Shown: positions 430-25,218 of the stretch, in pieces
Layout of the letters: every line of letters starts with the position of its first letter
How positions within the stretch are numbered: the stretch's first letter is position 1
DNA from: a virus
Virus record (IMG/VR): IMGVR_UViG_3300032038_000603
Coordinates: 1 to 25,218 of that record
DNA length: 25,218 bases
Reading direction: 5' to 3' (one strand)
Translations under genes and position numbers: made by a program
The notes under the pieces: model-generated
What the model was told of the DNA's origin: nothing
Seen by the model: only the letters and a program-made list of their open reading frames with translations
Database searches by the model: none

Positions 430-660
430 ATGGCAATTAATGAGGATGTTCTCCAACACATTCATGAAAAACGTGCGGAGAATCCATATACACAACAAGT
501 GGGGTTTAGGCATAATGGAGGTAATGAACACATTGCCGATATTAATTCTTCTGATGCGGAATTAGAAGCTATTATGAATGAAACCTGGTTTTCAGAAGAA
601 GATGATGTTGAAATGGTTTCTAACCAATTAGCGCTACAAACCCAAAGAGGAGGCTATTGA
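430..660 (+). CDS. Hypothetical acidic 76-aa protein occupying the tape-measure position
   Basis: GGAGG at 416-420 lies upstream of ATG 430. Its stop TGA 658-660 overlaps the ATG 660 of the giant ORF. I recognise no family motif. Confidence 0.6.
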   Translation: MAINEDVLQHIHEKRAENPYTQQVGFRHNGGNEHIADINSSDAELEAIMNETWFSEEDDVEMVSNQLALQTQRGGY

Positions 661-1040
661 TGTTAATAAACAATATTGAATTAAGTAGTCTCGGCATCAA
701 GTTATATGATAGAGTCATTACAAGTAATCAGGTTAACACTAAAGAAGCATGGCTTGATGGTGATATACAGCCAACTCCAATTAGACAGCAAGATAGTTTT
801 AAAGATATCAGGCTGTCTTTTTTAGTATTAGGAAATGATGAAGATGATGCCTTTTTAAGAATTAGTAAATTAACTAGATTATTAAAAAAGGCAACTTTAA
901 AGTTTGATGATTTAGATTATTACTTTGATGTTAGTATGACTGGTAAAGCTGAACCTCAAAGATTAAAGAATGGTAATTTTGTAGTTGATTATAGTTTTAC
1001 TTCTGATTATGCAAAAGGTGAAAGAGAAATCTATACAACT
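660..1040 (+). other. Dit (distal tail protein) N-terminal belt-domain-like segment of the giant ORF
   Basis: The pattern KDIRLSFLVLGNDEDDAFLRISKLTRLLKKATLKFDDLDYYFDVSMTG...NFVVDYSFTSDYAKG mirrors the siphoviral Dit N-domain layout. Compare SPP1 gp19.1: RELEVDAIVFGD..LRRRIEYLNFLL..ITFSDEPSRTYYG..VTLNFYCQDPLKYG. Confidence 0.5.
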
Positions 1041-4000
1041 GATGCAAACTATACAAGTAGTTTTAAATTAACTATTTTATATTATCAGAATTCAACAACT
1101 CTATTATCAACAGATAGTATTACTGTTCGCGCAGCAATGTTTGAAGATACTGGTAATACATTTGCTTCTATAGGTATTGACGCAAATAAATATAGACCGA
1201 ATTATTATCAAGAAGGTATTGCTACAAATCTTGGTGGCAGAGAAATTACTTATGAAAACTTACAGTCATTAGGAACTCTTATTATTAATTATGCTCCTAT
1301 AGCTTATAATTTAACTATTAACTATTTTATGGACAATGGAACTGGTATTTACCAGGATATGTTTGTAAGTAATATACAATTTACATATCCGCAATTACAA
1401 AATATTCAGTCTATTGGACAGTTAGTAGATGTAAAAAGTTATAAACCAGAAGGTTATTTAGGAAGAATAGCTTTTACAGGAGCATTAACAGTTGAAAACT
1501 TATTAGCTGTAAGTCCAATTTATGTTTTCTATGATCAATTAGAGAACGATTTATCTAAAAGCATCACTGTCTCTTATTTAAAAGAAGACGATGATGGAAC
1601 TTATTCTACTGTTGGAGCTTTAACCAAAGTGTTTAAGCAAAGTGATTTCACTGATGGAATGACTCTTGGAGAAATTCTTAATGTAAATGCTTATAGACCA
1701 ACAGCCACTTATTATAATGAAGGTTATATTGAAGATCATAGTCTTACTGAATTAATTACATATGAAGATTTGAAAGTTAGTTATGAGATTAAATATGCTA
1801 AATCAACTAATATTGTATTTGTTGAATATTATGTTGGTGTATATCCAGGTTGGTATAGAGTATCTACAACCACACTTCGAACAGTATATAAAGAATCTTA
1901 TGAAGAAAGCTTTAGTCTTTCAGATATTAATTTAGATTTAAACAAATATCACACTTCAGAATATCAAAGTGGAGTTTTATATAATGGCAGTATCTATGAT
2001 AGTTATGATGCTGTTATTTCTGGTGGAGTATTACAGGTTTATTATGAACCAATTAACTATACAATCCAAGTTGGTTATTGGGTTCCAGAAGAAGAGCCTA
2101 TTGTAGAAGATGTTGTTATTAATGCTTTAGATTTTCTTGGAGATCCAGTATTAAGCGATATTATTCCAATAGCAAGTCATAGACCAGAAGGTTTCCAATT
2201 TGATGCTTTTCTTTCTTATGATGGACCTATTACTCTCGCGGGTTTGACTCAAGCTTCTCCAATTAATATTTACTATGAAGAAATAGTAGCTGCCCGCACA
2301 AAAAATATAATTTTAAAATACAAGCAAGAATTAGCTTCTACTTTTGCAACAATAAATACATCTATTATTACTATCAATGAAGCAGATACTATAAATGGTA
2401 TTAGACTTAAAGATGTATTTAATATGAATCTTTATAAGCCTGATTACTATGAAAATGGTATTTTAGATGGATACAGTTCAACTGCCCTTCTTAATTTTGA
2501 TGAAATTGAATCAGCTTATACCGTAGTTTATATGGCTTCTACTTTCATCACTCCAGTTAGATATTACACAGATGATGTAGATGATTTAAATTGGATTGGA
2601 AGTAGTTCAATATCCTATAAAGTTATTGATTTTACTATTGATACAACTTTATATGATTTAGGATTTAATATAAATGCTTATAAACCTAGTTATTGTGATG
2701 ATGGAGAACTTCAATATCATGGACCTATTAATTTTGAATCTTTAAGAAACTTAACAAGCCTAAATGTAGTTTATGAAACAATTATGGAGCCAGGTGGGGA
2801 TTTAGATTATCCACATAGATTCCTTTTCCTAGAGCACAATGATTTAGGTGATTATGAATACTTACATCCTAATTGGACAATGAACCATGCTTATATTAAT
2901 ACTGGAGTTTCAGTTGAAGATATGAGCAAATTAACCGTAGTTATGGAATGCGAACGTGTTGATAATGATGTTCCTTTACACAATGTTAATGCGGGCTTCG
3001 GTTATTTATTTGGTTCTCAATCTGCATTAGGATCTTACTATATGAGATTTAACAACCAGACACAGTATGGTGAGAATCTTACTGGAGTAAATACTTATGA
3101 AGCTCAAGCGGGTCTTTATTCTGATGCTTTGGTTCAGGCTGAAAGCTCTGCAATTGGTTTCTCTGCAAACTCTGGTATTTATGCTATTGAAAGACCAGGA
3201 TATTCTACTGCGGTCTTCACTTATAGCAACACAATGGCAAGCGAGGCCGCCCAAATGCCATATCCATTATATTTGTTCGCAAATAATAATGCTGGTCAAT
3301 ATGAGGAAGGTCTTGCTGGTATTGGTATTTATAGTTGTCGTATTTATTATAATGGAGCTTTGATTAGGGATTATATTCCAGTTCAATTCTATGATAAGAT
3401 TGGCGATCAAGTTGCTCCTTCAAATTGTTTGTATGATAAAATTACAGGCACTTTCTTTGAAGATGCTACTGGACAGAACAGTTTTAATATTAGAGACGAT
3501 GAAAGATATACAGATACTAATTTAGATCATAAGATCGGTCATTGTTATGTGAATTATTATAAGGGTGAAACTTTTATGCAAAATGTTGCTTATTATTTTA
3601 GAGCAAGTGATTTTGTAGATCAGATATTTGATCCTTATGAAAAATTCCAAATTGATTTATATCAACCATCATATTATAAATCTGGTGAAATTGTTAATGT
3701 TGAAAATTTAGTTTGGGATTTCGATAACATGAACAATGCTGTTTATACAGTCGTTTATCCAGAACAAGCAAATACAATTACAGTTAGATATTATACTGAA
3801 AATAGTGTTGGTGTTAGAACTCTTATCGAAGAGGAGACAATTGGAATATCTGAACAAGATTTCTATCAAGCTCCTACTTTTGGAGATATAGTTCGTATCA
3901 ATAAATATAAGCCAGAAGGATATGAAACTGATTTTGTATATCCTGGCACAAAAGTCTCTCTTACTAGAGTAGTTGATCATTCTCCTTATGAGATTGTTTA

Positions 4001-7000
4001 TAAAATTGCAGATAGAGAGCTTGAAACATATACAACAATAATTCGCTATATTAAAAAAGTTTATGGAATTAGAACTTATGAAACTATAGCTTCCGAAGTT
4101 TTAACCCTTGATGAAACTCAATTTAGAGATGGCGAATATATTGATTTTTATATAGATAAAAATCTTCATAAACCCGCTAATTTTTATAAAGATGGTGAGC
4201 CATATCAGTGGTATGAAATGGATGAGAAACTTGATACACCAAGCAAACTCAAAGAAATTTATACTATTGTATATCAAGTAGATACAACATATTTGGATGT
4301 AAATTATTATAAAAACTCTGTAAGCAGTGAAAATCTTATTGCTTCTACAACCTGGGGAATTAATATAGATGTTTTTGAACCAGGAATTCCAATTTATGTT
4401 TTAGATACTATTCCTAATGAATATATAAACAAGTATAAACCTTCAAATTGTAATGGTGGTCAAATACAAAATAGTTCTACTGCTTATCAAACATTTGCTG
4501 ACTTGGCCGCGATTGAAGAAATAGCTATAGTTTATGAAGAAACGACTCAACCGCACGATCCAGAATCTTTATCTTATGAACAAAAGGTTCTTTATTGGGG
4601 TGAAGTTAATGAGGAAGATTATTTTGATGATATTAATGGAAATACTCATTTCTATGGAGGAAGAATCCCTTATATTGATCTTGGGTATAAACCAAAAGAT
4701 TTAAGTAGATTAAGAGTTGAGTTAAAGGGTTATGCAAGACCTTGGGGTATTGGATCTAATACAGCTCAATATATGTATCAAGATTTAGGTTATACTTATT
4801 TCTTTGGATATTATGGTCCATTGGGTGAGTCTTATCTTGGCACTTCTGGAGCAAGTAGAGATGGTGTTGCAGCTTCTACTTCTGCTAATGGAACTCCAAG
4901 AGGTTCTGCGGTAAGTCCTTCTTCTTCTGGATGTTTTGGTTTTAGATGCAGAATTCCACAAGCTGGAGGATATGTATATTCAGCAGCTGGCCCGCAATCA
5001 ATTGATGGACAAACTTATTATAGAGCTGGAGATGGTATTGGAGTAATTTCTGGAGATCCACACCTTAAATACACAGGAATTGAAGCCGTTTATAGAAAAG
5101 GTAAATATAGTGATTATGATGATAATTATAATGTAATTAAAGGATTTAGTAATTATGGATTCACTAGGACAGACGAAGAAGATCTTCGTGAGATTATAAC
5201 AGACTTTGATCGTGTTCCAAATTGGTGTATTAATCGTGCTACTGGAGGAACTGATAGAATAAGAACTGCTTGCGGTAATCCTTATACAATAATTCTTGAT
5301 GCTTATAATAAATATGGGGCTGAATGGAGAGAAAGTGATAGTAATACTCCTACCACCTATATTTTTGATGAATCAGAAGACAATCCATTATTTGAAAATA
5401 TTTGTCAGCCTAAAGGAACATTATCATTATTCCAAACTACAAATCCAGATACTGGAAATGTGAATATAATGGCATTTAATCCAACAGTAATGCCTTTCCT
5501 TGGTAGTTCTAGTAGTTTAAACCTTTCTAACAACGCACTTGGTAATCCTTATGACAGAGACTTTTCAACTTCAGTCTCATATACAACTTGGGTAATAACA
5601 GGAACAAAGCAATCTTCTGAAGTAGAACAAGAGAAGCCGGGAACTATAGTTATGGAACAGAAGACTGAATCTAGGAATATTAATTATGCGACTTTCCCAG
5701 TGCCAGCTTTTCCTCAAATGACAGGTTGTGCTATTTGGGGCATTAAGATTTATGATCAAGATAGATTAGTAAGAAATCTTATCCCAGTGGCTCAAGGAGA
5801 TCAAGTATATGATTATGTAATGCCAGCTAATGGATTATTTGATCTGGTCACAGAGATCTTCTTTGGCAACTCAAATAAAGGTGGAACCTATACTTATGAT
5901 AGCTATTTAGCTCCTCAAACTGGAGGACCAGTTCATTCAGTTAGAACAATTGAAGCAAATGAGGTTTTACCTCTTAATTGTATCCTAGATCCTACAATTT
6001 TTGGTAAGACAATAGCTAATTATTATGATTATGATAATACATTTATTACAAATCAATTTGTAAATGTTCCTACTTGGTATAATAAAGCTAATGAAAATTT
6101 AGAAGATATTCTTCAATTCAATGATTATAAGCCTGATGATTTCCATCTTGATGGATTATTAGATTTAGATGTTGATTTAAGTTTCCAGAATATGTCTCTT
6201 GCAGATATTTATCTTATGGGAGCATTGAATATCTACTATAAATTAAGAAACTTTACCAAGACAGTTGTTTATTATAGAGATAATGTAAGAATAGGTTCAA
6301 GAGATATTTTCTATTCATTAGAAGATATTGAAAATGCTACTTCTTTAGCAGATCTTAATATTGATGTAGATTTATTCTACAATGAAGATTTTGCTCATGG
6401 TAGATTAGTGTTCGATGAATCAATAATTGAAAATGATGATATTGAAGCATTCATTGATGCTCCATCACCAATTGTTGTATATGATAAATTAACTAAACAA
6501 GAAGCTCCAAACTTATTGTATGTAGAATATTATAGACAAGGAGCTTATGATGATACATTAATTACAGTCAATGAAAATAGTCCTAACTATTTAGATTGTA
6601 ATTTAAGTGCGGTTGTATTAAATCCTAACGGAGCTATTAAATATTACAACCACTATCATACAGCCTTATATGAGGATGAAGATTATGATTACTTCATTCC
6701 TTATCAAGTGTATGTTAGAAATAAGTTTGCTGGTATCCATAGAGGCCCAGCCCGCAAGTTCCCTACTTTAGCTATGATTGTTGAAAATGACAATTATACA
6801 ATTATTGAAGAGAGAAATGGATGGGGTCGTCTTGATGAATACCAAGCAGGATGGATTTTATTAAATCAAACTGATCCTATTACAGGTCCAGGACAGAATC
6901 CAGATTATGATGTAGCTGATCAAGAGACGGCTACTATTCCTTTTGGATCTACCATTACCATAACCAAAATGACAATAGACAGATTATGGTGTTATTGTCC

Positions 7001-9503
7001 TGCTCAAGATAGCTGGATTAAGAATGAAGATATTTCATTTAACCAAGCTGGTAAGCTTTATAATGGATTAGGAATTGAGGTAATTCATTTAGATGAGATT
7101 AATTTCTCTAGTCCTACTTTAGATTCTATTGGAATTAATCCACAACAATATAAGTTAAGATTCCATGAACAAGCACAAGTTCCTATGCTTACTTTATCTT
7201 ATGCAAGTCTTTCAGATTTACATGAAATAGAGTTTGTATATCCTGAAACAATTTACAGTTATACTTGTAAATATTATCAGTATCAAGCAATTCCAGTTAA
7301 TCTTTTAGGCACGGCCGCATTTACTTGTTCTATTTCAGATTGGAATCCAGATTGGGAGAAATTCATAGAAACTTCTTGGCGGCAAGCTGAATTAATAGAT
7401 TATGGATATCTTCAAACTAAAAATACTGTAGATCCTCATTATTTAGTTGTTTATTCTGAATCAGATGATTCTTCAGCATCTGTAATTACTTATCCAACAG
7501 ACGGTAAAACTGTTTTAAGAATTACTGGGCCAATGACTCAACAATTTTATCCAGTGCAAAGTTGTGATAATGATTCAATTGTTGGTTATGTTAAAGCTAG
7601 AGATTCAGATTATTATCAATTAATTTCTGAATATGGAGGAACTATTACTGCTGATGTTGAACCAATTCTTTATAGAGATACAGAATTAGTATTAACTTGG
7701 GATTATTTTGGATTTGATAAAAACCTTTATAAACCATTAGGTTTTGGAGATGGTATTTATCTTTGGAATCCAAGACCTTGGAATAAAGATAATATTCAAT
7801 TTACATTTAATGAATTAGTTAGATGTGGAACACAATATGTTGTATATCCACCATTTGATCCTAATACTTATAAATTATGGAATCAACCTAATTATTTAGG
7901 AGTATATTATACTGTTTATCATACAGAAGGTTCTAACGAAATTAGGTATATTAAGAATCGTGGTATTAGTATTAATATGGCAGGAACATATGACTATTTT
8001 GAACCAGGAGAATATAGCGAACATAAAATTTATGACATTTATACTTCTGGGGAAATGACAAGACCATTTGTAAAAACAAGTGATACTTTAGACACTTCTG
8101 AAGATACATCTTACACTACTAGAACTTGGAATAGTGCATTATATTGGTATGATAATCGAGATGAATCTAATTCTCATACAACTGGTTATGTTCTTCCTTA
8201 TGTAGGAACTTGGGATTCAAGAAGTGGAAATATTCAAACTTTACTTGATAACCCAGAAATTGGAGATAGTTATTTTTATACATTCTCTAACTTTAGAAGT
8301 AGTCCTACTGTTGTTCTTGGTCTTGGTAATGAATATCTTAATAAAATTTCAAGATATTATTTACTTAAGAATATGAGCAGCACAATGTATGATGCAGATT
8401 GGCTTCGTATATATGATAATACTAATATTAACAGATACGCACTTGGTAAAGGTAGAGCAGATAAATATCTTATGACTGCAGATCCATATACCAATAATGT
8501 TATTCAAGGTGATAATGATTATGAACATTTAAGAGGTATTATTTATGACAATATAGCTTATGAGAACTTTATGATGATTCACTATTGGGTCCCAGTTCCA
8601 AAAGGTGTGAGATACAATTGGAATAATCAAGAAGAAAGAATCCCAGATAATGGATTATTTGATTTATTAACTGGTGATTTTGCTAGAAGCTATAGATTAA
8701 CCGATGGTGCTATTAAGCCTTATAGCGATTATCCTAATACTTTACAGCCAACTAGAGATGGTAATGATTTAATCTTCTTAAGAAATCAAACTGTTAATGA
8801 GAATAATGCATACAACTATTTTGCTAATAAAGAATTTGAGTATGAAACTATTAATACTATTTATCAAACAAATACGGCTGTTCAAACTTATAATTGGCCA
8901 GATACTTATGCAAATAGAATGTATAATCTTGCTCAATATACAGTTGTTCCAGGGACTAAATATGTTGATCCGCAAGCTAATTTGATTACAGGTAGTTGGG
9001 TGTTTGCTGGAAATCAATGGATTCCAGAGAATGCTTTAACTCCTGCTTCTGGAGATGTAGTTAATAGATTTACTTATACTAATGAAAAACAAACATTATG
9101 TTTAAGACCTACTCAATATGATAGCACTGTTAAAGCTTATCCAAATCCTGGTTATTTAAATGAAGATGGAGTTGATTATGGTTCTAATCCAATAGTAGTA
9201 GATTCTTATTGCACTTGTTATTCAACTTCTCTCCAAAGGGTTCAAGCTTACTTTATAGGAGATGGTTGGGTTTCTGCATCTCAAAGTCAAAACAGAGTGG
9301 TTGAAGATGGAACTAATTATGTAGTTGCAGTGAATACAAATTATTACCAGTATCCAATAGAGGATAATAATTACTTAATTGATCAATATCATTATGGTGA
9401 TAGAATTACCTCTATTCACACATTATATGCGGATAGTGATTGGATTTATACTGGTATAGGATGGATTAAGAAAACAGCTAATAACTTATCAATAGTTGAA
9501 TAA
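660..9503 (+). CDS. Giant (2947 aa) tail-tip adhesin-like protein: Dit N-domain-like head fused to MucBP-like repeats, three lectin/jelly-roll-like modules and SH3b-like domains
   Basis: The ORF is 8844 nt with no interruption. GGAGG at 649-653 lies 6 nt before ATG 660 (the track starts it at TTG 657). It is translationally coupled to the upstream ORF (TGATG). Domain calls come from motif reading, detailed in the sub-features. Confidence 0.9.
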   Translation: MLINNIELSSLGIKLYDRVITSNQVNTKEAWLDGDIQPTPIRQQDSFKDIRLSFLVLGNDEDDAFLRISKLTRLLKKATLKFDDLDYYFDVSMTGKAEPQRLKNGNFVVDYSFTSDYAKGEREIYTTDANYTSSFKLTILYYQNSTTLLSTDSITVRAAMFEDTGNTFASIGIDANKYRPNYYQEGIATNLGGREITYENLQSLGTLIINYAPIAYNLTINYFMDNGTGIYQDMFVSNIQFTYPQLQNIQSIGQLVDVKSYKPEGYLGRIAFTGALTVENLLAVSPIYVFYDQLENDLSKSITVSYLKEDDDGTYSTVGALTKVFKQSDFTDGMTLGEILNVNAYRPTATYYNEGYIEDHSLTELITYEDLKVSYEIKYAKSTNIVFVEYYVGVYPGWYRVSTTTLRTVYKESYEESFSLSDINLDLNKYHTSEYQSGVLYNGSIYDSYDAVISGGVLQVYYEPINYTIQVGYWVPEEEPIVEDVVINALDFLGDPVLSDIIPIASHRPEGFQFDAFLSYDGPITLAGLTQASPINIYYEEIVAARTKNIILKYKQELASTFATINTSIITINEADTINGIRLKDVFNMNLYKPDYYENGILDGYSSTALLNFDEIESAYTVVYMASTFITPVRYYTDDVDDLNWIGSSSISYKVIDFTIDTTLYDLGFNINAYKPSYCDDGELQYHGPINFESLRNLTSLNVVYETIMEPGGDLDYPHRFLFLEHNDLGDYEYLHPNWTMNHAYINTGVSVEDMSKLTVVMECERVDNDVPLHNVNAGFGYLFGSQSALGSYYMRFNNQTQYGENLTGVNTYEAQAGLYSDALVQAESSAIGFSANSGIYAIERPGYSTAVFTYSNTMASEAAQMPYPLYLFANNNAGQYEEGLAGIGIYSCRIYYNGALIRDYIPVQFYDKIGDQVAPSNCLYDKITGTFFEDATGQNSFNIRDDERYTDTNLDHKIGHCYVNYYKGETFMQNVAYYFRASDFVDQIFDPYEKFQIDLYQPSYYKSGEIVNVENLVWDFDNMNNAVYTVVYPEQANTITVRYYTENSVGVRTLIEEETIGISEQDFYQAPTFGDIVRINKYKPEGYETDFVYPGTKVSLTRVVDHSPYEIVYKIADRELETYTTIIRYIKKVYGIRTYETIASEVLTLDETQFRDGEYIDFYIDKNLHKPANFYKDGEPYQWYEMDEKLDTPSKLKEIYTIVYQVDTTYLDVNYYKNSVSSENLIASTTWGINIDVFEPGIPIYVLDTIPNEYINKYKPSNCNGGQIQNSSTAYQTFADLAAIEEIAIVYEETTQPHDPESLSYEQKVLYWGEVNEEDYFDDINGNTHFYGGRIPYIDLGYKPKDLSRLRVELKGYARPWGIGSNTAQYMYQDLGYTYFFGYYGPLGESYLGTSGASRDGVAASTSANGTPRGSAVSPSSSGCFGFRCRIPQAGGYVYSAAGPQSIDGQTYYRAGDGIGVISGDPHLKYTGIEAVYRKGKYSDYDDNYNVIKGFSNYGFTRTDEEDLREIITDFDRVPNWCINRATGGTDRIRTACGNPYTIILDAYNKYGAEWRESDSNTPTTYIFDESEDNPLFENICQPKGTLSLFQTTNPDTGNVNIMAFNPTVMPFLGSSSSLNLSNNALGNPYDRDFSTSVSYTTWVITGTKQSSEVEQEKPGTIVMEQKTESRNINYATFPVPAFPQMTGCAIWGIKIYDQDRLVRNLIPVAQGDQVYDYVMPANGLFDLVTEIFFGNSNKGGTYTYDSYLAPQTGGPVHSVRTIEANEVLPLNCILDPTIFGKTIANYYDYDNTFITNQFVNVPTWYNKANENLEDILQFNDYKPDDFHLDGLLDLDVDLSFQNMSLADIYLMGALNIYYKLRNFTKTVVYYRDNVRIGSRDIFYSLEDIENATSLADLNIDVDLFYNEDFAHGRLVFDESIIENDDIEAFIDAPSPIVVYDKLTKQEAPNLLYVEYYRQGAYDDTLITVNENSPNYLDCNLSAVVLNPNGAIKYYNHYHTALYEDEDYDYFIPYQVYVRNKFAGIHRGPARKFPTLAMIVENDNYTIIEERNGWGRLDEYQAGWILLNQTDPITGPGQNPDYDVADQETATIPFGSTITITKMTIDRLWCYCPAQDSWIKNEDISFNQAGKLYNGLGIEVIHLDEINFSSPTLDSIGINPQQYKLRFHEQAQVPMLTLSYASLSDLHEIEFVYPETIYSYTCKYYQYQAIPVNLLGTAAFTCSISDWNPDWEKFIETSWRQAELIDYGYLQTKNTVDPHYLVVYSESDDSSASVITYPTDGKTVLRITGPMTQQFYPVQSCDNDSIVGYVKARDSDYYQLISEYGGTITADVEPILYRDTELVLTWDYFGFDKNLYKPLGFGDGIYLWNPRPWNKDNIQFTFNELVRCGTQYVVYPPFDPNTYKLWNQPNYLGVYYTVYHTEGSNEIRYIKNRGISINMAGTYDYFEPGEYSEHKIYDIYTSGEMTRPFVKTSDTLDTSEDTSYTTRTWNSALYWYDNRDESNSHTTGYVLPYVGTWDSRSGNIQTLLDNPEIGDSYFYTFSNFRSSPTVVLGLGNEYLNKISRYYLLKNMSSTMYDADWLRIYDNTNINRYALGKGRADKYLMTADPYTNNVIQGDNDYEHLRGIIYDNIAYENFMMIHYWVPVPKGVRYNWNNQEERIPDNGLFDLLTGDFARSYRLTDGAIKPYSDYPNTLQPTRDGNDLIFLRNQTVNENNAYNYFANKEFEYETINTIYQTNTAVQTYNWPDTYANRMYNLAQYTVVPGTKYVDPQANLITGSWVFAGNQWIPENALTPASGDVVNRFTYTNEKQTLCLRPTQYDSTVKAYPNPGYLNEDGVDYGSNPIVVDSYCTCYSTSLQRVQAYFIGDGWVSASQSQNRVVEDGTNYVVAVNTNYYQYPIEDNNYLIDQYHYGDRITSIHTLYADSDWIYTGIGWIKKTANNLSIVE
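1060..2790 (+). repeat. Array A: seven tandem ~77-85-codon beta-rich repeats (MucBP-like), each carrying a Y(K/R/H)P..(Y/F) motif
   Basis: The motif Tyr/His codons fall at 1191, 1440, 1692, 1947, 2178, 2433 and 2679. The motifs are KYRPNYY, SYKPEGY, AYRPTATYY, KYHTSEY, SHRPEGF, LYKPDYY and AYKPSYC. Each repeat is flanked by V.Y / I.YY strand-like motifs. The copies are diverged at the nucleotide level. Confidence 0.7.
2800..3500 (+). other. Module J1: lectin/jelly-roll-like domain ending in ...LYLFANNNAG..IGIYSCRIYYNGALIRDYIPV...CLYDKITGTFFEDATGQNSF
   Basis: Its C-terminal signature (LFa.n....iy..kIy..g.l(I/V)R(D/N)(Y/L)IPV....G(L)(Y/F)D..t..FF.n.g) is shared with J2 and J3. I recall the signature from uncharacterised phage tail-associated proteins but cannot name the family. 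Confidence 0.4.
3540..4545 (+). repeat. Array B: four more MucBP-like repeats (LYQPSYY, KYKPEGY, LHKPANFY, KYKPSNC)
   Basis: It has the same Y(K/Q)P motif and V.YY strand pattern as array A, read from the translation. Confidence 0.65.
4590..5920 (+). other. Module J2: second lectin/jelly-roll-like domain with a large Gly/Ser-rich insertion
   Basis: It starts YWGEVNEEDYFDDINGNTHFYGGRIPYIDLGYKP and ends CAIWGIKIYDQDRLVRNLIPVAQGDQVYDYVMPANGLFDLVTEIFFGNSNKGGTY. The end is parallel to the J1 C-terminal signature. Confidence 0.4.
6010..6700 (+). repeat. Array C: about three degenerate copies of the same repeat (DYKPDDF plus weaker copies)
   Basis: The strand motifs IANYYDYD, KTVVYYRDN and LLYVEYYRQG recur at repeat spacing. 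Only the first copy retains a clear YKP motif. Confidence 0.4.
6708..7040 (+). other. Two SH3b-like domains inside the giant ORF
   Basis: VYVRNKFAGIHRGPARKFPTLAMIVENDNYTIIEERNGWGRLDEYQAGWILLN is a typical bacterial SH3 pattern (G.W..v....GW(I/V)). A weaker second copy follows: TITITKMTIDRLWCYCPAQDSWIKNEDI. Confidence 0.5.
7930..8710 (+). other. Module J3: third, more diverged copy of the J-type module
   Basis: It ends ...IIYDNIAYENFMMIHYWVPVPKGVRYNWNNQEERIPDNGLFDLLTGDFARSY. It shares the PV....NGLFDL.T..F signature with J2. The start boundary is uncertain. Confidence 0.3.
8925..9490 (+). other. C-terminal triplet of SH3-like / cell-wall-binding-like units
   Basis: Three units each end in an aromatic-Gly-Trp motif: GSWVFAGNQWIPENAL, YFIGDGWVSASQS and WIYTGIGWIKKTANNL. 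Confidence 0.35.
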
Positions 9504-10896: not shown

Positions 10897-10979
10897 ATCT
10901 ATTGAAAATGCTTAAAATTTAAGGGCTTTCGTCTTGAGTCAGAGGTTTAATTTTTGCGCTGGTCTCCAACCCTTTTGTA

Positions 10980-10988
10980 TGCTATAAT
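10980..10988 (+). promoter_or_regulatory. Extended -10 promoter candidate (TGcTATAAT) reading toward attP and the integrase
   Basis: TGCTATAAT is read at 10980-10988. I see no good -35 element. Confidence 0.3.
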
Positions 10989-11071
10989 GCCTAGAGTCAA
11001 GAGGTCATAGTCCTAAATCAGTCAAGCTGTCTTGTTGATTTTAAAGATATTAAAGATAGATTGGTGGGTAG

Positions 11072-11121
11072 TTTGACTGGCAGTCAGGAGGTCACGAGTT
11101 CGAGCCTCGTACGCTCCACCA
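11072..11121 (+). other. 3' portion of a tRNA-Ala(GGC)-like gene (anticodon arm to CCA): putative attP core, not a complete tRNA
   Basis: The parts are: anticodon stem TTTGA/TCAGG (two G-U pairs), loop CTGGCAG (U33, GGC, A37), variable AGGTC, T-arm ACGAG-TTCGAGC-CTCGT, acceptor 3' strand ACGCTCC with U70, discriminator A, and CCA. No D-arm and no matching 5' acceptor strand lie upstream. A tmRNA 3' end (also ...CTCCACCA) is an alternative reading. Confidence 0.6.
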
Positions 11122-11202: not shown

Positions 11203-12099
11203 ATGATTACAATGAAACCAGTATCAAAATCCATTGAAGAAACTTTTGAAGATTTTATTAATTCTAAAAGAGCAAATGGAATAAGGAATAAAACTCTTCA
11301 GACGTATTCTCAGCAATTCCATACAATTAGCAAGGAATTAACTGTAGAAAAGCAAATTGAAGAGCTTTCCAAAAAAGATTTAGAGAATGTAATTTTAGCC
11401 TTGAGAAATAGAGGATTATCCCCCAATTCTATTCGAAGTTATACTGCAACTTTACAATCTTTTTTGTCTTGGTGTAATGATGAAGGTCTAACAGATCTTA
11501 AAATCAAAAAATATAAAGGCCAAGAGTCAATCAAAACAACTTACACAAACGAAGAACTTGTTAAACTTTTAAAGAGACCCGATCGGAAATCCTGTACATT
11601 TTGTGAATATAGAAATTGGGTCATCATCAACTTATTGCTTAATTCTGGTTGTAGAGCTGCTACTATTCGTAATATAAGAATTCAAGATATCAATTTGGAT
11701 GAAGGAATTATTAGTTACAGACATACAAAGAATGGTTCTTCTCAAATTGTGCCTTTGTGCCAGGAGATGAAGAAAATATTGAAAGATTATTTAAAAGTAA
11801 GAGGAGGTTCTCAAACTGATTTTCTCTTTCCAAAAGAGAATGAAGAACAAATGACAGAGAACGGTTTATCTGAAGCCATTCGAAGATATAACAGAAAAAG
11901 AGGCGTTGAAAAAACTTCAATTCATTTGTTTAGACATTCATTTGCGGAAAGGTATCTTAGGGCAGGCGGAAACGCATTTGATTTACAAAGAATTTTGGGT
12001 CACTCGACTCTAGATATGACAAAGCACTATTGCCGCATTTACGATACTGAATTAATGAAAAATTATGATTCTTTATCTCCTTTACAGAGATTGGTTTAA
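11203..12099 (+). CDS. int: Tyrosine recombinase / phage integrase
   Basis: GGAGG at 11189-11193 precedes the start. An N-terminal SAM-like domain is present (TLQTYSQQF...IRSYTATLQSFLSW). The catalytic pattern is R (CRAATIRNI), H-x-x-R (HLFRHSF) and H...Y (LGHSTLDMTKHY). Confidence 0.9.
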   Translation: MITMKPVSKSIEETFEDFINSKRANGIRNKTLQTYSQQFHTISKELTVEKQIEELSKKDLENVILALRNRGLSPNSIRSYTATLQSFLSWCNDEGLTDLKIKKYKGQESIKTTYTNEELVKLLKRPDRKSCTFCEYRNWVIINLLLNSGCRAATIRNIRIQDINLDEGIISYRHTKNGSSQIVPLCQEMKKILKDYLKVRGGSQTDFLFPKENEEQMTENGLSEAIRRYNRKRGVEKTSIHLFRHSFAERYLRAGGNAFDLQRILGHSTLDMTKHYCRIYDTELMKNYDSLSPLQRLV

Positions 12100-12102
12100 A
12101 AA

Positions 12103-12137
12103 AGACCCAGCTTTGATTAGCTGGGTCTTTTTTTTTT
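12103..12137. terminator. Bidirectional rho-independent terminator between the integrase and the minus-strand gene
   Basis: Stem AGACCCAGC (12103-12111) pairs with GCTGGGTCT (12120-12128). An A-run lies upstream and a T-run at 12128-12137. Confidence 0.8.
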
Positions 12138-12324
12138 ATTGCCTAGTGTGCAGGTATTTATCTGTATCAGACATTGCTATTTCGAATGACTTCTGGATGA
12201 GATCGAGAGGTTTAACTTTCTCACCTCCCATCTTGGTGATGAGTTCATTTTGCTTATCAATAATTTTGAAATAGTTCTTTGGGACTGTGATAATGTTGGT
12301 ATCAAGATCGAGTGTAATTTTCAT
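12136..12324 (-). CDS. Hypothetical 62-aa protein, the only minus-strand gene (candidate regulator or excision factor)
   Basis: On the minus strand, AAAGGAGG lies 7-8 nt before the ATG. The gene has its own sigma70-like promoter and a palindromic operator. I recognise no family motif. Confidence 0.65.
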   Translation of the reverse strand: MKITLDLDTNIITVPKNYFKIIDKQNELITKMGGEKVKPLDLIQKSFEIAMSDTDKYLHTRQ

Positions 12325-12345
12325 TTGGTTAACCTCCTTTGTGAA

Positions 12346-12363
12346 TTAATATAATTATATTAA
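12346..12363. promoter_or_regulatory. Perfect 18-bp palindrome TTAATATAATTATATTAA overlapping the -10 of the minus-strand promoter (operator candidate)
   Basis: Read directly: TTAATATAA is the reverse complement of TTATATTAA. Confidence 0.6.
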
Positions 12364-12385
12364 CTCTTTTTTGTGTGTAGTGCAA
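12357..12385 (-). promoter_or_regulatory. Sigma70-like promoter for the 62-aa gene (TTGCAC-17-TAATAT on the minus strand)
   Basis: The -35 is the reverse complement of 12380-12385 and the -10 is the reverse complement of 12357-12362. The spacer is 17 nt. Confidence 0.6.
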
Positions 12386-12435
12386 TAGTTGCGGTTTAGG
12401 CCCGATCGGTTTGTTTGGATAAAGCGAACGGTTGT

Positions 12436-12464
12436 TTGATTTTCAAAAAAATTTTTTGTATAAT
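12436..12464 (+). promoter_or_regulatory. Near-consensus sigma70 promoter TTGATT-17-TATAAT
   Basis: TTGATT is at 12436-12441 and TATAAT at 12459-12464, with a 17-nt spacer. The first 21 nt are identical to 17476-17496. Confidence 0.7.
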
Positions 12465-12470
12465 AATAAT

Positions 12471-12695
12471 GAGAAAGCAAATAAAAACTCCTTTCATCTC
12501 ATAGAATATAAAAATAATTTCCTTTCTCAAAGGACAAATTCCTTTAAAAAACTTAACCTGATTTTTATTATTATATGAGAGCAAATGTGCTATTTTTTAA
12601 GAGCCAAATTTGTCTAAACATCTTTAAAAAGACATTGTGGTTATCTTCCTTTTAACTCCGGGGTTGAACTCTTTATGGGTTCAACTCTTTTTTTT
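12471..12695 (+). ncRNA. Candidate ~220-nt non-coding transcript (promoter to terminator; no ORF with an RBS; four CU-rich UCCUUU motifs)
   Basis: It is bounded by the 12436 promoter and the 12660-12695 terminator. Only unsupported mini-ORFs lie inside. CCTTT(C) motifs occur at about 12489, 12521, 12541 and 12643. Both ends are inferred. Confidence 0.4.
12660..12695 (+). terminator. Rho-independent terminator
   Basis: Stem GGGGTTGAAC pairs with GTTCAACTCT (7 Watson-Crick pairs plus G-U pairs) around a 9-nt loop. A run of T follows to 12695. Confidence 0.6.
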
Positions 12696-12815
12696 ATCTA
12701 AAAATTTTTCTAATTTTTTGGACAAAACTAATTTGGCGATCTTTTTCAATTTTCAAAATCTAATGAGGGGGAAGATTTTCTAAAAAATTTTTTTTTGAAA
12801 AGGAGAAAAAGACAA

Positions 12816-13316
12816 ATGTTAAAAGATATTAAAGGTTATGAAGGTTTATATGCTGTTACTGAAGAAGGACAGGTGTGGAGTTATAGAAAACAAAAGTTTT
12901 TAAAACCTTGGGATGATTCTCATGGTTATTTAAAAGTAGGATTAGTTGTAAATTATCATAAAGATCAAAGACGAGTACATAGATTGGTTTTAGAAACTTT
13001 TAATCCAGTAGAAGGAATGGAAAATCTTGAAGTTAATCATCTCGATGAAGATAAAACTAATAATAAATTAACCAATCTTTCTTGGAGCACTAGATTAGAA
13101 AATGTTAGACATGGCACTGGAATTCAAAGATCAGCACTTACAAGAAGTAAACCAGTAGCGCAATTAACTAAACAGGGAGAAATAATTGCAACTTACCCTT
13201 CTATTAGTGAAGCTGCTAGACAGACTGGGGCAAAAAAAGCAAGAATTTCAATGTGTTGTAATGGAAAAGCAATATCAACACACGGATATAAATGGAGGTT
13301 TATAGATGGAAAATAA
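12816..13316 (+). CDS. NUMOD4/HNH_3 homing endonuclease with a C-terminal helix-turn-helix (HTH, NUMOD1/IENR-like) motif
   Basis: AGGAG at 12801-12805 precedes ATG 12816 (the track starts at TTG 12795). The motifs are IKGYEGLYAVTEEGQVWS (NUMOD4), VHRLVLETF...VNHLDEDKTNNKLTNLSWSTRLEN (HNH) and YPSISEAARQTG...GYKWRF. Confidence 0.85.
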   Translation: MLKDIKGYEGLYAVTEEGQVWSYRKQKFLKPWDDSHGYLKVGLVVNYHKDQRRVHRLVLETFNPVEGMENLEVNHLDEDKTNNKLTNLSWSTRLENVRHGTGIQRSALTRSKPVAQLTKQGEIIATYPSISEAARQTGAKKARISMCCNGKAISTHGYKWRFIDGK

Positions 13317-13488
13317 ATATTTAAGAAAAACTCTTGGAATGAAATGCACACAAGAATTTTATGACATAGTTTGTGAATATGTCCAAGAGAGAGGGATGAC
13401 TGTCTCTAATTTAATTCGCAAGGCTCTTAAAGAAACTTATAATCTTGAAGAAAAAGCTGAAATTAAAAAAGGAAAGAAATCAAATTAA
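13306..13488 (+). CDS. Small ribbon-helix-helix (CopG/Arc-like) protein
   Basis: GGAGG lies upstream, and the start overlaps the HNH gene end. The beta-strand then helix pattern ends in MTVSNLIRKALKETY. Confidence 0.45.
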   Translation: MENKYLRKTLGMKCTQEFYDIVCEYVQERGMTVSNLIRKALKETYNLEEKAEIKKGKKSN

Positions 13489-13526
13489 TCAGAATAGAGC
13501 GGGCTAGGTTCTAAGCACTATTTGTC

Positions 13527-13555
13527 AGACACTGTAAGACTGTGTCTTTTTTTTT
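13527..13555 (+). terminator. Rho-independent terminator
   Basis: Stem AGACAC (13527-13532) pairs with GTGTCT (13542-13547), followed by a run of T. Confidence 0.55.
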
Positions 13556-13734
13556 CAGAAAAAATAATTTTTGATAAGTTGGACAAAGTTAATTAAAGTA
13601 AATGTCCTAATTTTTATATATAAAGAGCAGTTGGGGGAAGGGTCTATATCGGTCTTTTTAAACACTTCGCTTCGCTCGTGTTTAAAAATCCCTCTTTAAA
13701 AACTTTTCCTTAGCTCGCAACCAAAAGGAGAAGA

Positions 13735-14184
13735 ATGTATAATAAAAAAGTTTATAAAGCACAATTAGATGCTATAGAGGCTTCTGCTCCTGGAAAGTAT
13801 GATTGTGCAGGAATATATTCTATCTCTATTGGAGGGAAATTAGTTTATATAGGTAAGTCTAATGATGTAAAAACAAGAATTGCTTTTCATATAATGAACT
13901 TAACAGATCAATCAATAAGAGATTCTCACTCACACAAGTATGATGTAATAAGAGAGGCTGTTGGAAGAAAAATAATTGTTGAGTTTGACTTATTATACAA
14001 AGCTAAAGAGATAGATAAAGAAAAGATTCAAGAAGAAATTGGTATTAAAGAAGGAGAATTAATACGAAAATATATGCCTCCTTTAAATTATCAAATACCA
14101 AAAGAAAAAAATTATAAAAGATATACAGTACAAAAAACTGCAAAAACAATTACTTTAGATGAGATTATGGACGATTCTAAATAA
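13735..14184 (+). CDS. GIY-YIG nuclease (free-standing homing-endonuclease-like, catalytic domain only)
   Basis: AAGGAG lies upstream. The motifs are GIYSISIGGKLVYIGKSNDVKTRIAFH (GIY...YIG...R) and EGELIRKYMPPLNYQ (E...N). Confidence 0.8.
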   Translation: MYNKKVYKAQLDAIEASAPGKYDCAGIYSISIGGKLVYIGKSNDVKTRIAFHIMNLTDQSIRDSHSHKYDVIREAVGRKIIVEFDLLYKAKEIDKEKIQEEIGIKEGELIRKYMPPLNYQIPKEKNYKRYTVQKTAKTITLDEIMDDSK

Positions 14185-24920: not shown

Positions 24921-25218
24921 TTTTATATAAAAACAATATTCTATATAGTTTTAGGTTTGGACTTAAAGGGTTAATAATCTTAAACGATTTATTATATTTA
25001 AATGAAGACATTAAGTTGTTGACGTATTATGCTGGATTTATCACCGATCAACCTAATATGTCATTACAAGATGTTCAATCCTTACTAATGGAATGTTCTG
25101 ATAATCAAATCGATTTATTAAACACGTATATTGATAAAAATTTATCTCTAAAATCTCCTTTAGAAATCGAGGAGCTATACACCAGAATCGTAGGAGAAAT
25201 GGGTATAGCTCCTTCTGA
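24917..25218 (+). CDS. Tail assembly chaperone-like protein, 5' part (runs off the window; continues as 3..425)
   Basis: ATG 24917 overlaps the major tail protein stop (ATGA). I translated it by hand as MILYKNNILYSFRFGLKGLIILNDLLYLNEDIKLLTYY..., with no stops to the window end. Confidence 0.6.
   Translation, partial: MILYKNNILYSFRFGLKGLIILNDLLYLNEDIKLLTYYAGFITDQPNMSLQDVQSLLMECSDNQIDLLNTYIDKNLSLKSPLEIEELYTRIVGEMGIAPS
25005..25218. repeat. Terminal direct repeat, copy 2 (equals 1..214)
   Basis: See copy 1. The single difference is C25123 versus T119. Confidence 0.95.

Follow-up and report, generated by a model that had tools for sequence, protein, structure and literature searches.

Signals at the locus and absence of coding

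The stretch of DNA analysed here, hereafter called the window, is the 25,218-nt virus record IMGVR_UViG_3300032038_000603 of IMG/VR. Between a minus-strand gene for a protein of 62 amino acids (aa) and the gene for an HNH/NUMOD4 homing-type endonuclease it leaves a gap of 470 nt, and this gap contains the promoter-terminator unit that is the subject of this work. Judged from its sequence and from that of its relatives, the unit is a real, conserved, structured, non-coding transcription unit in the switch region of a temperate phage. The features at the left of the gap and in the unit are:

12136-12324, minus strand: 62-aa gene, divergent from P_R
12325-12430, no strand assigned: divergent-promoter/operator region with a weak leftward promoter and the GC-rich palindrome GGCCCGATCGG, read directly from the sequence
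12436-12464, plus strand: P_R, near-consensus sigma-70 promoter, TTGATT-17-TATAAT, score 10/12
12471-12695, plus strand: predicted non-coding transcript of about 225 nt, without an open reading frame (ORF)
12660-12695, plus strand: intrinsic terminator T1, with a stem at 12660-12688 of 12 pairs (five G-C), a loop of five and then seven T

P_R points away from the 62-aa gene and has its predicted start near 12471. An initial annotation, made from the sequence alone, had proposed this promoter and a terminator at the position of T1, with no start codon behind a ribosome-binding site between them, and all three statements hold. Stops interrupt all six frames of the unit, and no ATG, GTG or TTG follows a GGAG-type site. 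Neither this six-frame reading nor tblastx against all fetched relatives revealed a conserved small coding ORF or the remnant of a protein, and a decayed gene was therefore rejected. Promoter-like matches as a class are mildly enriched in this AT-rich region (23 found versus 14.2 expected), so that the weight of P_R comes from its conservation in relatives.

The predicted transcript folds with a z-score of -2.5. The Rfam search suggested by the initial annotation found no match at gathering score in the window, the region 12100-12900 giving only sub-threshold terminator-like matches, and tRNAs were the sole matches in 15 relatives; the unit probably belongs to an RNA family that has not been described. 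A tRNA or suppressor tRNA hidden in the unit was considered and rejected, as ARAGORN finds none there.

Conservation of the unit in related phages

Relatives were collected by searching viral and metagenome contigs with the integrase and the 62-aa protein, from protein database clusters and by contig look-ups. Many of them are contigs of 22-27 kb from the rumen of cattle, sheep or goat. Their layout is constant and consists of the integrase gene, the leftward 62-aa gene, a leftward promoter, a rightward sigma-70 promoter, a variable stretch, one or two intrinsic terminators with a CU-rich tract ahead of them, and a gene for a ribbon-helix-helix (RHH) protein. The start of the 62-aa gene and the rightward promoter are about 95-125 nt apart, and P_R is the most widely conserved non-coding block, with 85-100% identity within the subclade of the window. 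The hairpins of the terminators are kept while their sequences differ, and every lineage examined has a terminator ahead of its RHH gene. Units of relatives measure 141-249 nt and have the same ends as in the window; tandem units are present in L007, L021 and L025. The initial annotation had proposed a regulatory RNA at the position of a lysogeny switch and had regarded lack of conservation in relatives as one of the findings that would speak against it. Position and helices are kept, and together with the covariation described below and the absence of an Rfam match this supports a discrete non-coding unit at the lysogeny/lysis switch.

The sister subclade (L008, L074-L087) lacks the HNH gene and carries a version of the unit of 141-214 nt. 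It opens with a 5' hairpin where transcription starts; next come a central helix and an invariant hairpin, UGCCA..UGGCA, with ACUCCUUU behind it, and the terminator closes the unit. RNAalifold, applied to this full set, called the terminator alone. An alignment of units from distant lineages with MAFFT was too poor for use, and a search of viral contigs for the promoter found only the contig of L001. Searches of GenBank phages with the region and with the whole genome gave no match.

The region between the divergent promoters is far less constant. Relatives show a minus-strand promoter of the form TTGACA/TTGACT-17-TATATT/TAAAAT, and identity of the window at 12325-12430 to close relatives is just 45-54%. 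An extra insertion of about 245 bp, absent from the window, was seen between the 62-aa gene and the rightward promoter in L001 (1218-1560) and also in L095 and L096; it bears a minus-strand gene of 60-61 aa and a hairpin of its own.

Alleles, covarying helices and cassette exchange

The subclade of the window, defined by a 62-aa protein at least 94% identical, contains four alleles of the unit, all 225-249 nt long:

Allele W: the window and L088-L091
L001-type allele: L001, L092, L095 and L096
L093 allele: L093
L094 allele: L094

The aligned alleles have in common the word ACUCCUUU, a long hairpin termed SL-M, a pre-terminator block and the terminator. In the window the corresponding elements are:

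12487-12500, plus strand: block B1, ACTCCTTTCATCTC, the first CU-rich motif, Shine-Dalgarno-complementary and kept in all four alleles (alignment A4)
12497-12515, plus strand: 5' arm of SL-M, pairing with 12561-12580; its beginning overlaps the 3' end of B1 (12497-12500)
12561-12580, plus strand: 3' arm of SL-M, inverted repeat I1
12631-12659, plus strand: pre-terminator block, GACAT, 8 nt and TCTTCCTTTTAACTCC, which mirrors a Shine-Dalgarno sequence plus AUG; present in all alleles and in the L007/L020/L021 group

A covariation analysis across related contigs, of the general kind that the initial annotation had recommended, revealed compensatory changes among the four alleles in both SL-M and T1. 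Across the alleles, seven of the 17 pairs of SL-M are changed on both sides. All 12 pairs of the T1 helix are kept in every sequence, many as G-U, and four are changed on both sides. Taken together, 94.8% of the cells of these 29 pairs are paired, versus 38-54% when the partners are slid by one to three columns, and 11 pairs are changed on both sides versus 0-3 in the slid controls. In 500 shuffles, the observed share of paired cells, the numbers of pairs and of cells changed on both sides and the covariation score were never reached; the number of further pair types was unremarkable (84/500 shuffles). Furthermore, two substitutions within the L001-type allele, a C-to-T change in L096 and an A-to-G change in L092, lie in or next to a helix, and pairing is kept as G-U on the plus strand only, since the same changes would be A-C mismatches on the other strand.

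The comparison of complete loci shows how the alleles are distributed. Between the window and L088, identity over the unit, taken from the promoter up to the terminator's 5' arm, is 98-100%, as opposed to 49% in the leftward promoter region, 86% in the 62-aa gene, 72% in the terminator, 60% in the downstream box and 73% in the HNH gene. The comparison with L001 gives the reverse picture, with 44-65% identity in the interior of the unit and 83-92% in the flanks. The right-hand junction lies in the loop of the terminator, so that T1 of the window is a hybrid, its 5' arm being of W type and its loop and 3' arm L001-like. It follows from this pattern of identities that the unit has been swapped as a module, independently of the adjoining genes and of the leftward promoter region. 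Such an exchange of discrete alleles suggests that the unit carries a specificity.

CU-rich motifs and the proposed function of the RNA

The initial annotation had pointed to four CU-rich motifs complementary to Shine-Dalgarno sequences. In the unit, TCCTTT starts at 12489, 12520, 12540 and 12647 on the plus strand; four of the 15 plus-strand copies in the genome thus fall within 190 nt, where 0.11 would be expected (Poisson P about 6e-6). This is the densest cluster in the genome and was reached in none of 20,000 shuffles. The number and enrichment of the motifs therefore stand. Two of the four are predicted to pair with nearby GA-rich runs, however, and hence not all of them can be free anti-Shine-Dalgarno sites. 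Two CU-rich motifs are common to all alleles. The word ACUCCUUU of B1 occurs near the 5' end, about 17-30 nt after the predicted start, and is invariant in the L008 subclade as well; the second, CAU-N8-UCUUCCUUU, stands directly before the terminator in the pre-terminator block, which reads GACAU, 8-10 nt and then UCUUCCUUU or AUCCUUUC across the alleles. Both ACUCCUUU and UCUUCCUUU lie outside, or almost wholly outside, the consensus helices in four of four alleles and thus have the character of conserved, unpaired, pyrimidine-rich seeds. Short minus-strand reading frames behind the CU motifs (Shine-Dalgarno-N8-ATG, in all four alleles) were also considered. They were not adopted: they comprise 3-11 codons, are interrupted by frame-shifting indels and are unconserved; in other lineages they reach up to 28 codons.

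On this basis we put forward, with about an even chance of being correct, that an early transcript is stopped at T1 and yields a structured RNA with anti-Shine-Dalgarno motifs and a regulatory role. Transcription from P_R would be halted at T1 by default, and P_R would therefore be uncoupled from the downstream HNH, RHH and packaging genes. The terminated RNA, presumably made and stable, would itself be the regulator, its CU-rich motifs pairing with ribosome-binding sites. As an alternative step, regulated read-through of T1 may gate entry into the rightward operon. The architecture would be that of PR'-tR' of lambda (6S RNA/StxS), with a promoter, a short terminated RNA and an operon.

Several observations weigh against this proposal. 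The pre-terminator block forms a compact predicted duplex of 18 bp with the ribosome-binding site of the 62-aa gene, and a specific antisense action on this site is at first sight attractive. Across ten lineages, however, cognate duplexes were no better than non-cognate ones (p = 0.27), and this candidate was rejected. The same comparison for the ribosome-binding site of the first downstream gene gave p = 0.68, and pairing of the unit with the 27 ribosome-binding sites of the window did not exceed that of shuffled units. The prediction of pairing with phage gene starts, which the initial annotation had advised, thus provided no specific target, and the anti-Shine-Dalgarno character of the unit is real but generic. 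No recognisable antiterminator protein was found in Pfam and PHROGs scans of nearly all ORFs of the window. The covariation rests on only four independent alleles and is therefore good evidence rather than proof, and the arms of SL-M could alternatively be read as inverted DNA sites for a protein. Finally, small protein genes fill the variable stretch in some lineages (L012-L017 and L025), so that the interior may represent cargo and not a central regulator.

Boxes and terminators downstream of the unit

A sequence element which we call the M1-M2 box links the unit with the genes on its right:

12528-12583, plus strand: M1-M2 copy 1, inside the unit (AAAGGACAA, about 30 nt, TATTAT..TGAGAG), comprising the top and the 3' arm of SL-M
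12711-12775, plus strand: M1-M2 copy 2 (TTTTTTGGACAAAAC ... TTTTCAAAATCTAATGAGGGGGAAG), after T1 and upstream of the HNH gene (probable ATG at 12816)
13306-13488, plus strand: RHH gene, 60 aa, with weak Pfam and PHROGs matches and the typical pattern in relatives
13528-13555, plus strand: terminator T2, after the RHH gene
13572-13631, plus strand: M1-M2 copy 3 (TTGGACAA at 13579-13586), after T2 and upstream of the GIY-YIG and terminase genes

The box has the form TCTAAAAATTTTT..TTGGACAA, about 30 nt, a -10-like TATAnT and TGAGRG. Of the three exact plus-strand copies of TTGGACAA in the genome, two belong to M1-M2 copies 2 and 3. Copy 1 contains a promoter-like match, TTTAAA-17-TATTAT at 12543-12571, and its spacing from GGACA to TATGAG is 40-41 nt in all four alleles. 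A conserved box follows each terminator, and the box just upstream of the first rightward gene is conserved in all lineages. A pattern search of viral contigs for the post-terminator box gave a single chance match, in a GC-rich gene of L005.

An ordinary sigma-70 promoter was considered for M1-M2 and rejected, since there is no -35 element 16-18 nt from the -10-like part and no -10 element 17-18 nt from TTGGAC. Its upstream half bears what we take to be a resemblance to the UP-element consensus, AAAWWTWTTTTNNNAAA, which Estrem and co-workers are said to have reported in 1998. We infer that M1-M2 may represent a promoter class that needs the help of the alpha subunit or of an activator. In 15 of 17 lineages, however, the interval from the last terminator to the first gene holds no promoter of the sigma-70 type, which counts against reading the box as a promoter.

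The same finding lends itself to a view in which the unit is purely a cis-acting leader or attenuator. P_R would then be the true early rightward promoter, T1 a conditional barrier and the short RNA a by-product, and read-through of T1, brought about by some factor or an alternative fold, would switch on the HNH and RHH genes and the packaging genes. We regard this as possible, though doubtful, for the mechanism as for the view as a whole. It agrees with the orientation of the unit, its position immediately upstream of the operon, the terminator ahead of every RHH gene and the absence of a canonical promoter downstream. In L014, L012 and L021, moreover, only 41-49 nt separate the terminator from the first gene, and the RHH operon must therefore be reached there by read-through. 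On the other hand, neither an antiterminator gene nor a conserved alternative, antiterminator pairing was identified, and the M1-M2 box after each terminator, resembling a promoter with an UP element, could drive the genes alone. T1 is a strong terminator, with a perfect stem of 11 bp and nine T in L088. A riboswitch or T-box would be expected to have a conserved ligand-binding core; the interior of the unit, with its 44-65% identity next to flanks of 83-92%, is too variable for such a leader, and Rfam returned neither class. An RNA acting independently is instead favoured by the strong promoter and terminator of the unit itself, the tandem copies, the unpaired CU motifs, the 5' hairpin and the promoter-like box after each terminator. 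By analogy with PR'-tR' of lambda and Stx phages, action in cis and in trans would not be exclusive in one unit.

The boxes also bear on the idea that the element works at the level of DNA, with inverted repeats and M1-M2 boxes as protein sites or promoters and transcription as an incidental event, or that the place is a slot for decayed cargo (a moron). Three occurrences of the box in the window at promoter-like positions, the words CTCTCA/TGAGAG shared by the SL-M arms and the downstream boxes, and the small genes held in the slot by L014, L012, L017 and L025 are in line with it. A DNA site would, however, hardly explain why the helix of 17 pairs is kept despite allele-specific sequences, nor why G-U pairs are tolerated on the plus strand only, both in variants within an allele and throughout the terminator. 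Decay does not fit a unit that is 98-100% identical amid divergent flanks, and a former gene has left no trace. We hold this idea to be unlikely.

Further observations concern the same region. A second apparently empty gap (13489-13734) contains T2, the third M1-M2 box and a CU-rich stretch ahead of the ribosome-binding site of the GIY-YIG gene. The HNH/NUMOD4 gene (12795-13316) stands between M1-M2 box and RHH gene only in the subclade of the window and resembles an inserted mobile gene; L088-L091 have a different HNH gene of 227 aa. In L018, a stretch of about 170 nt between the M1-M2 box and a 253-aa gene, some 480-640 nt upstream of where the 62-aa gene starts (window orientation), is rich in GC and in hairpins, in contrast to its AT-rich surroundings; it could be a further RNA element.

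Flanking proteins and a possible RNA-based immunity

The 62-aa protein falls into 117 unnamed protein clusters and has no Pfam domain. Its AlphaFold2 model (pLDDT 95.7) consists of two short N-terminal strands followed by helices, and neither a PDB match nor a family name was obtained with it. The RHH gene has a conserved place in relatives, at the head of the rightward operon, and its product is a plausible DNA-binding regulator. With the RHH gene and the conserved, divergent 62-aa gene flanking the unit and a GC-rich palindrome between the divergent promoters, the earlier statement that the phage has no protein repressor is unsafe.

That statement had led the initial annotation to an RNA-based immunity or translation control as in P4 CI RNA or P1 c4. 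In its strictest form this would be an RNA-only cassette for specificity and immunity: the 225-nt RNA from the rightward promoter, present in a lysogen, would pair with the leader of the superinfecting or resident genome, block rightward expression and so decide on the expression of the lytic operon, with the alleles as immunity groups. We judge this to be improbable, both as a general explanation and in the RNA-only form. The cassette-like behaviour of the unit is compatible with it, as discrete alleles reassort independently of the flanks and the arms of SL-M provide a strong, allele-specific internal complementarity. The 5' leader of the first gene contains a second, partly matching version of the 3' arm motif (M2; 12748-12775, partly complementary by eye), and the minimal gene set has no recognisable CI-type repressor. 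Against it stand the absence of homology to known immunity RNAs in Rfam and the absence of a specific Shine-Dalgarno target. An ordinary hairpin accounts equally well for the internal complementarity; the window and L088 share the same allele, yet their downstream M2 copies differ; and the RHH and 62-aa proteins and the palindrome between the promoters fit a protein-based switch.

Genome, host and the question of an origin

Positions 1-214 of the window recur at 25005-25218 (214 nt), and the genome is therefore complete, circular or terminally redundant, with 25,004 bp and a GC content of about 31%. As deduced from its sequence, it is the genome of a temperate siphovirus from rumen Mogibacterium/Anaerovoracaceae. 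All genes except the 62-aa gene are on the plus strand:

First in gene order, plus strand: two small ORFs, possibly tail chaperones
657-9503, plus strand: ORF of 2,948 aa in tape-measure position
After this ORF and before the integrase gene, plus strand: tail proteins Dit and Tal (Pfam and PHROGs scans)
11203-12099, plus strand: tyrosine integrase, 298 aa (Pfam and PHROGs scans)
Right of the gap, plus strand: HNH/NUMOD4 endonuclease gene, 60-aa RHH gene and GIY-YIG nuclease gene, in this order (Pfam and PHROGs scans)
After the GIY-YIG gene, plus strand: small and large terminase, portal, MuF-like protein, scaffold, major head protein, connectors and tail tube

The 2,948-aa ORF had no Pfam or PHROGs match at E <= 0.001 and takes more than one third of the genome, an unusual length for a phage of 25 kb. 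The scans of the window revealed no recognisable gene for replication, lysis (endolysin or holin), a CI-type repressor or an antiterminator.

The host group is named by the attachment site. The probable attP core (11071-11121) shows 98% identity with the 51 nt at the 3' end of tRNA-Ala(GGC) in 37 genomes from rumen Mogibacterium, Anaerovoracaceae and Clostridiales. An attP within the promoter-terminator unit was accordingly rejected, as this site lies near the integrase gene. Such hosts belong to the low-GC Firmicutes, bacteria that typically use sigma-A promoters, intrinsic terminators and strong Shine-Dalgarno sites. L075 and L079 carry a whole tRNA-Ala(GGC) beside the integrase gene. The host contig L040 has a second copy of the att core (361-395 and 6015-6049) at a distance of 5.6 kb from tRNA-Ala(GGC), which suggests a small element integrated at the same site, and in L044 the genes for tRNA-Leu and tRNA-Ala are 3.4 kb apart versus the usual distance of about 35 nt.

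Since the genome has no recognisable replication gene, its origin must be somewhere, and the initial annotation had named an AT-rich origin with iteron-like motifs as the alternative for the unit. Two direct repeats of 24 nt, 71% identical and 31 nt apart, are indeed present in AT-rich sequence. Two weak repeats fall short, however, of the three or more that define iterons, and a cluster of DnaA boxes was not seen by eye, no formal scan having been made. GC skew is monotonic and takes no turn here, no replication gene is adjacent, and the interior differs between near-identical genomes. Replication-type winged-helix genes, several of which have iterons, occur in the more distant relatives L007, L021, L023, L026, L029 and L036 and are missing from the subclade of the window; where such genes are present, iterons lie in or beside them, far from the unit. 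An origin at this place thus found no support and is very improbable.

Three further sequence features are worth recording. A promoter-like TTGTATGCTATAATG with an extended -10 element (10955-10990), located after Tal and before attP and the integrase gene, could serve to express the latter. The integrase and 62-aa genes converge, and the perfect hairpin of 15 bp between them, with A and T runs on either side (12098-12133), probably terminates transcription in both directions. The early genes of relatives (L007, L008, L018, L021, L026 and others) contain many in-frame TAG codons, which suggests that TAG stands for an amino acid there (code 15). Of 25 genes of the window, at most one ends in TAG (423-425), and one in-frame TAG is present just upstream of the GIY-YIG gene (13678-13735); neither the window nor the loci scanned yielded a suppressor tRNA.

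Comparison with known systems and significance

Regulatory RNAs at phage switches are, to our knowledge, known almost only from a few enterobacterial model phages, with lambda OOP, 6S/StxS, P22 sar, P4 CI and P1 c4 as examples. The unit shares with PR'-tR' of lambda and Stx phages a strong promoter, an intrinsic terminator within about 200 nt and a position directly upstream of a packaging and structural operon; there, the terminated leader doubles as the small RNA StxS (PMC7547250). The two differ in that no Q-family antiterminator or Q-binding site is recognisable here, that dependence on Hfq is presumably unlikely with a Gram-positive anaerobe as host, that Rfam gives no sequence similarity and that the present unit lies at the divergent early switch and not after the early operon.

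The immunity RNAs P4 CI and P1/P7 c4 are made from the leader of the operon they control. Like them, the unit is non-coding, stands at an immunity locus, contains internal complementary segments and shows allelic variation that could set specificity, whereas it is without an Rfam match and has one clear complementary pair, for which an ordinary hairpin suffices. P22 sar and lambda OOP cover a ribosome-binding site, and the predicted duplex of the pre-terminator block with the 62-aa gene site recalls this. The unit, however, is not a true antisense RNA and lies about 300 nt from that target, and cognate pairing equalled non-cognate pairing across ten lineages.

The CU- or C-rich small RNAs of Firmicutes, LhrC and RsaE/RoxS, likewise have several Shine-Dalgarno-complementary pyrimidine motifs, a promoter and terminator of their own and, as here in some relatives, tandem copies. 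The motif of the unit is UCCUUU rather than UCCC/CCCC, and the RNA is phage-borne, about 225 nt long and without a match to these families in Rfam. Attenuation by countertranscripts as in pIP501 and pT181 also combines allelic leaders, which contain a terminator and precede the first gene, with a small repressor of RHH type close by. In the unit, in contrast, signs of an antisense promoter are weak (three of four alleles, with 8-10 of 12 matches each) and no antisense terminator was seen.

The unit would thus be an undescribed RNA family in uncultured phages of rumen Clostridia, with support from covariation and allelic exchange, and it serves as a warning for annotation, as the largest apparently empty gap of these genomes is not empty. 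If the reading as an immunity cassette were true, interchangeable RNA alleles would set immunity groups just as protein immunity regions do in lambdoid phages. The natural alleles together with the hairpin offer an experimental handle on the control of lysogeny in very small temperate phages with few regulators.

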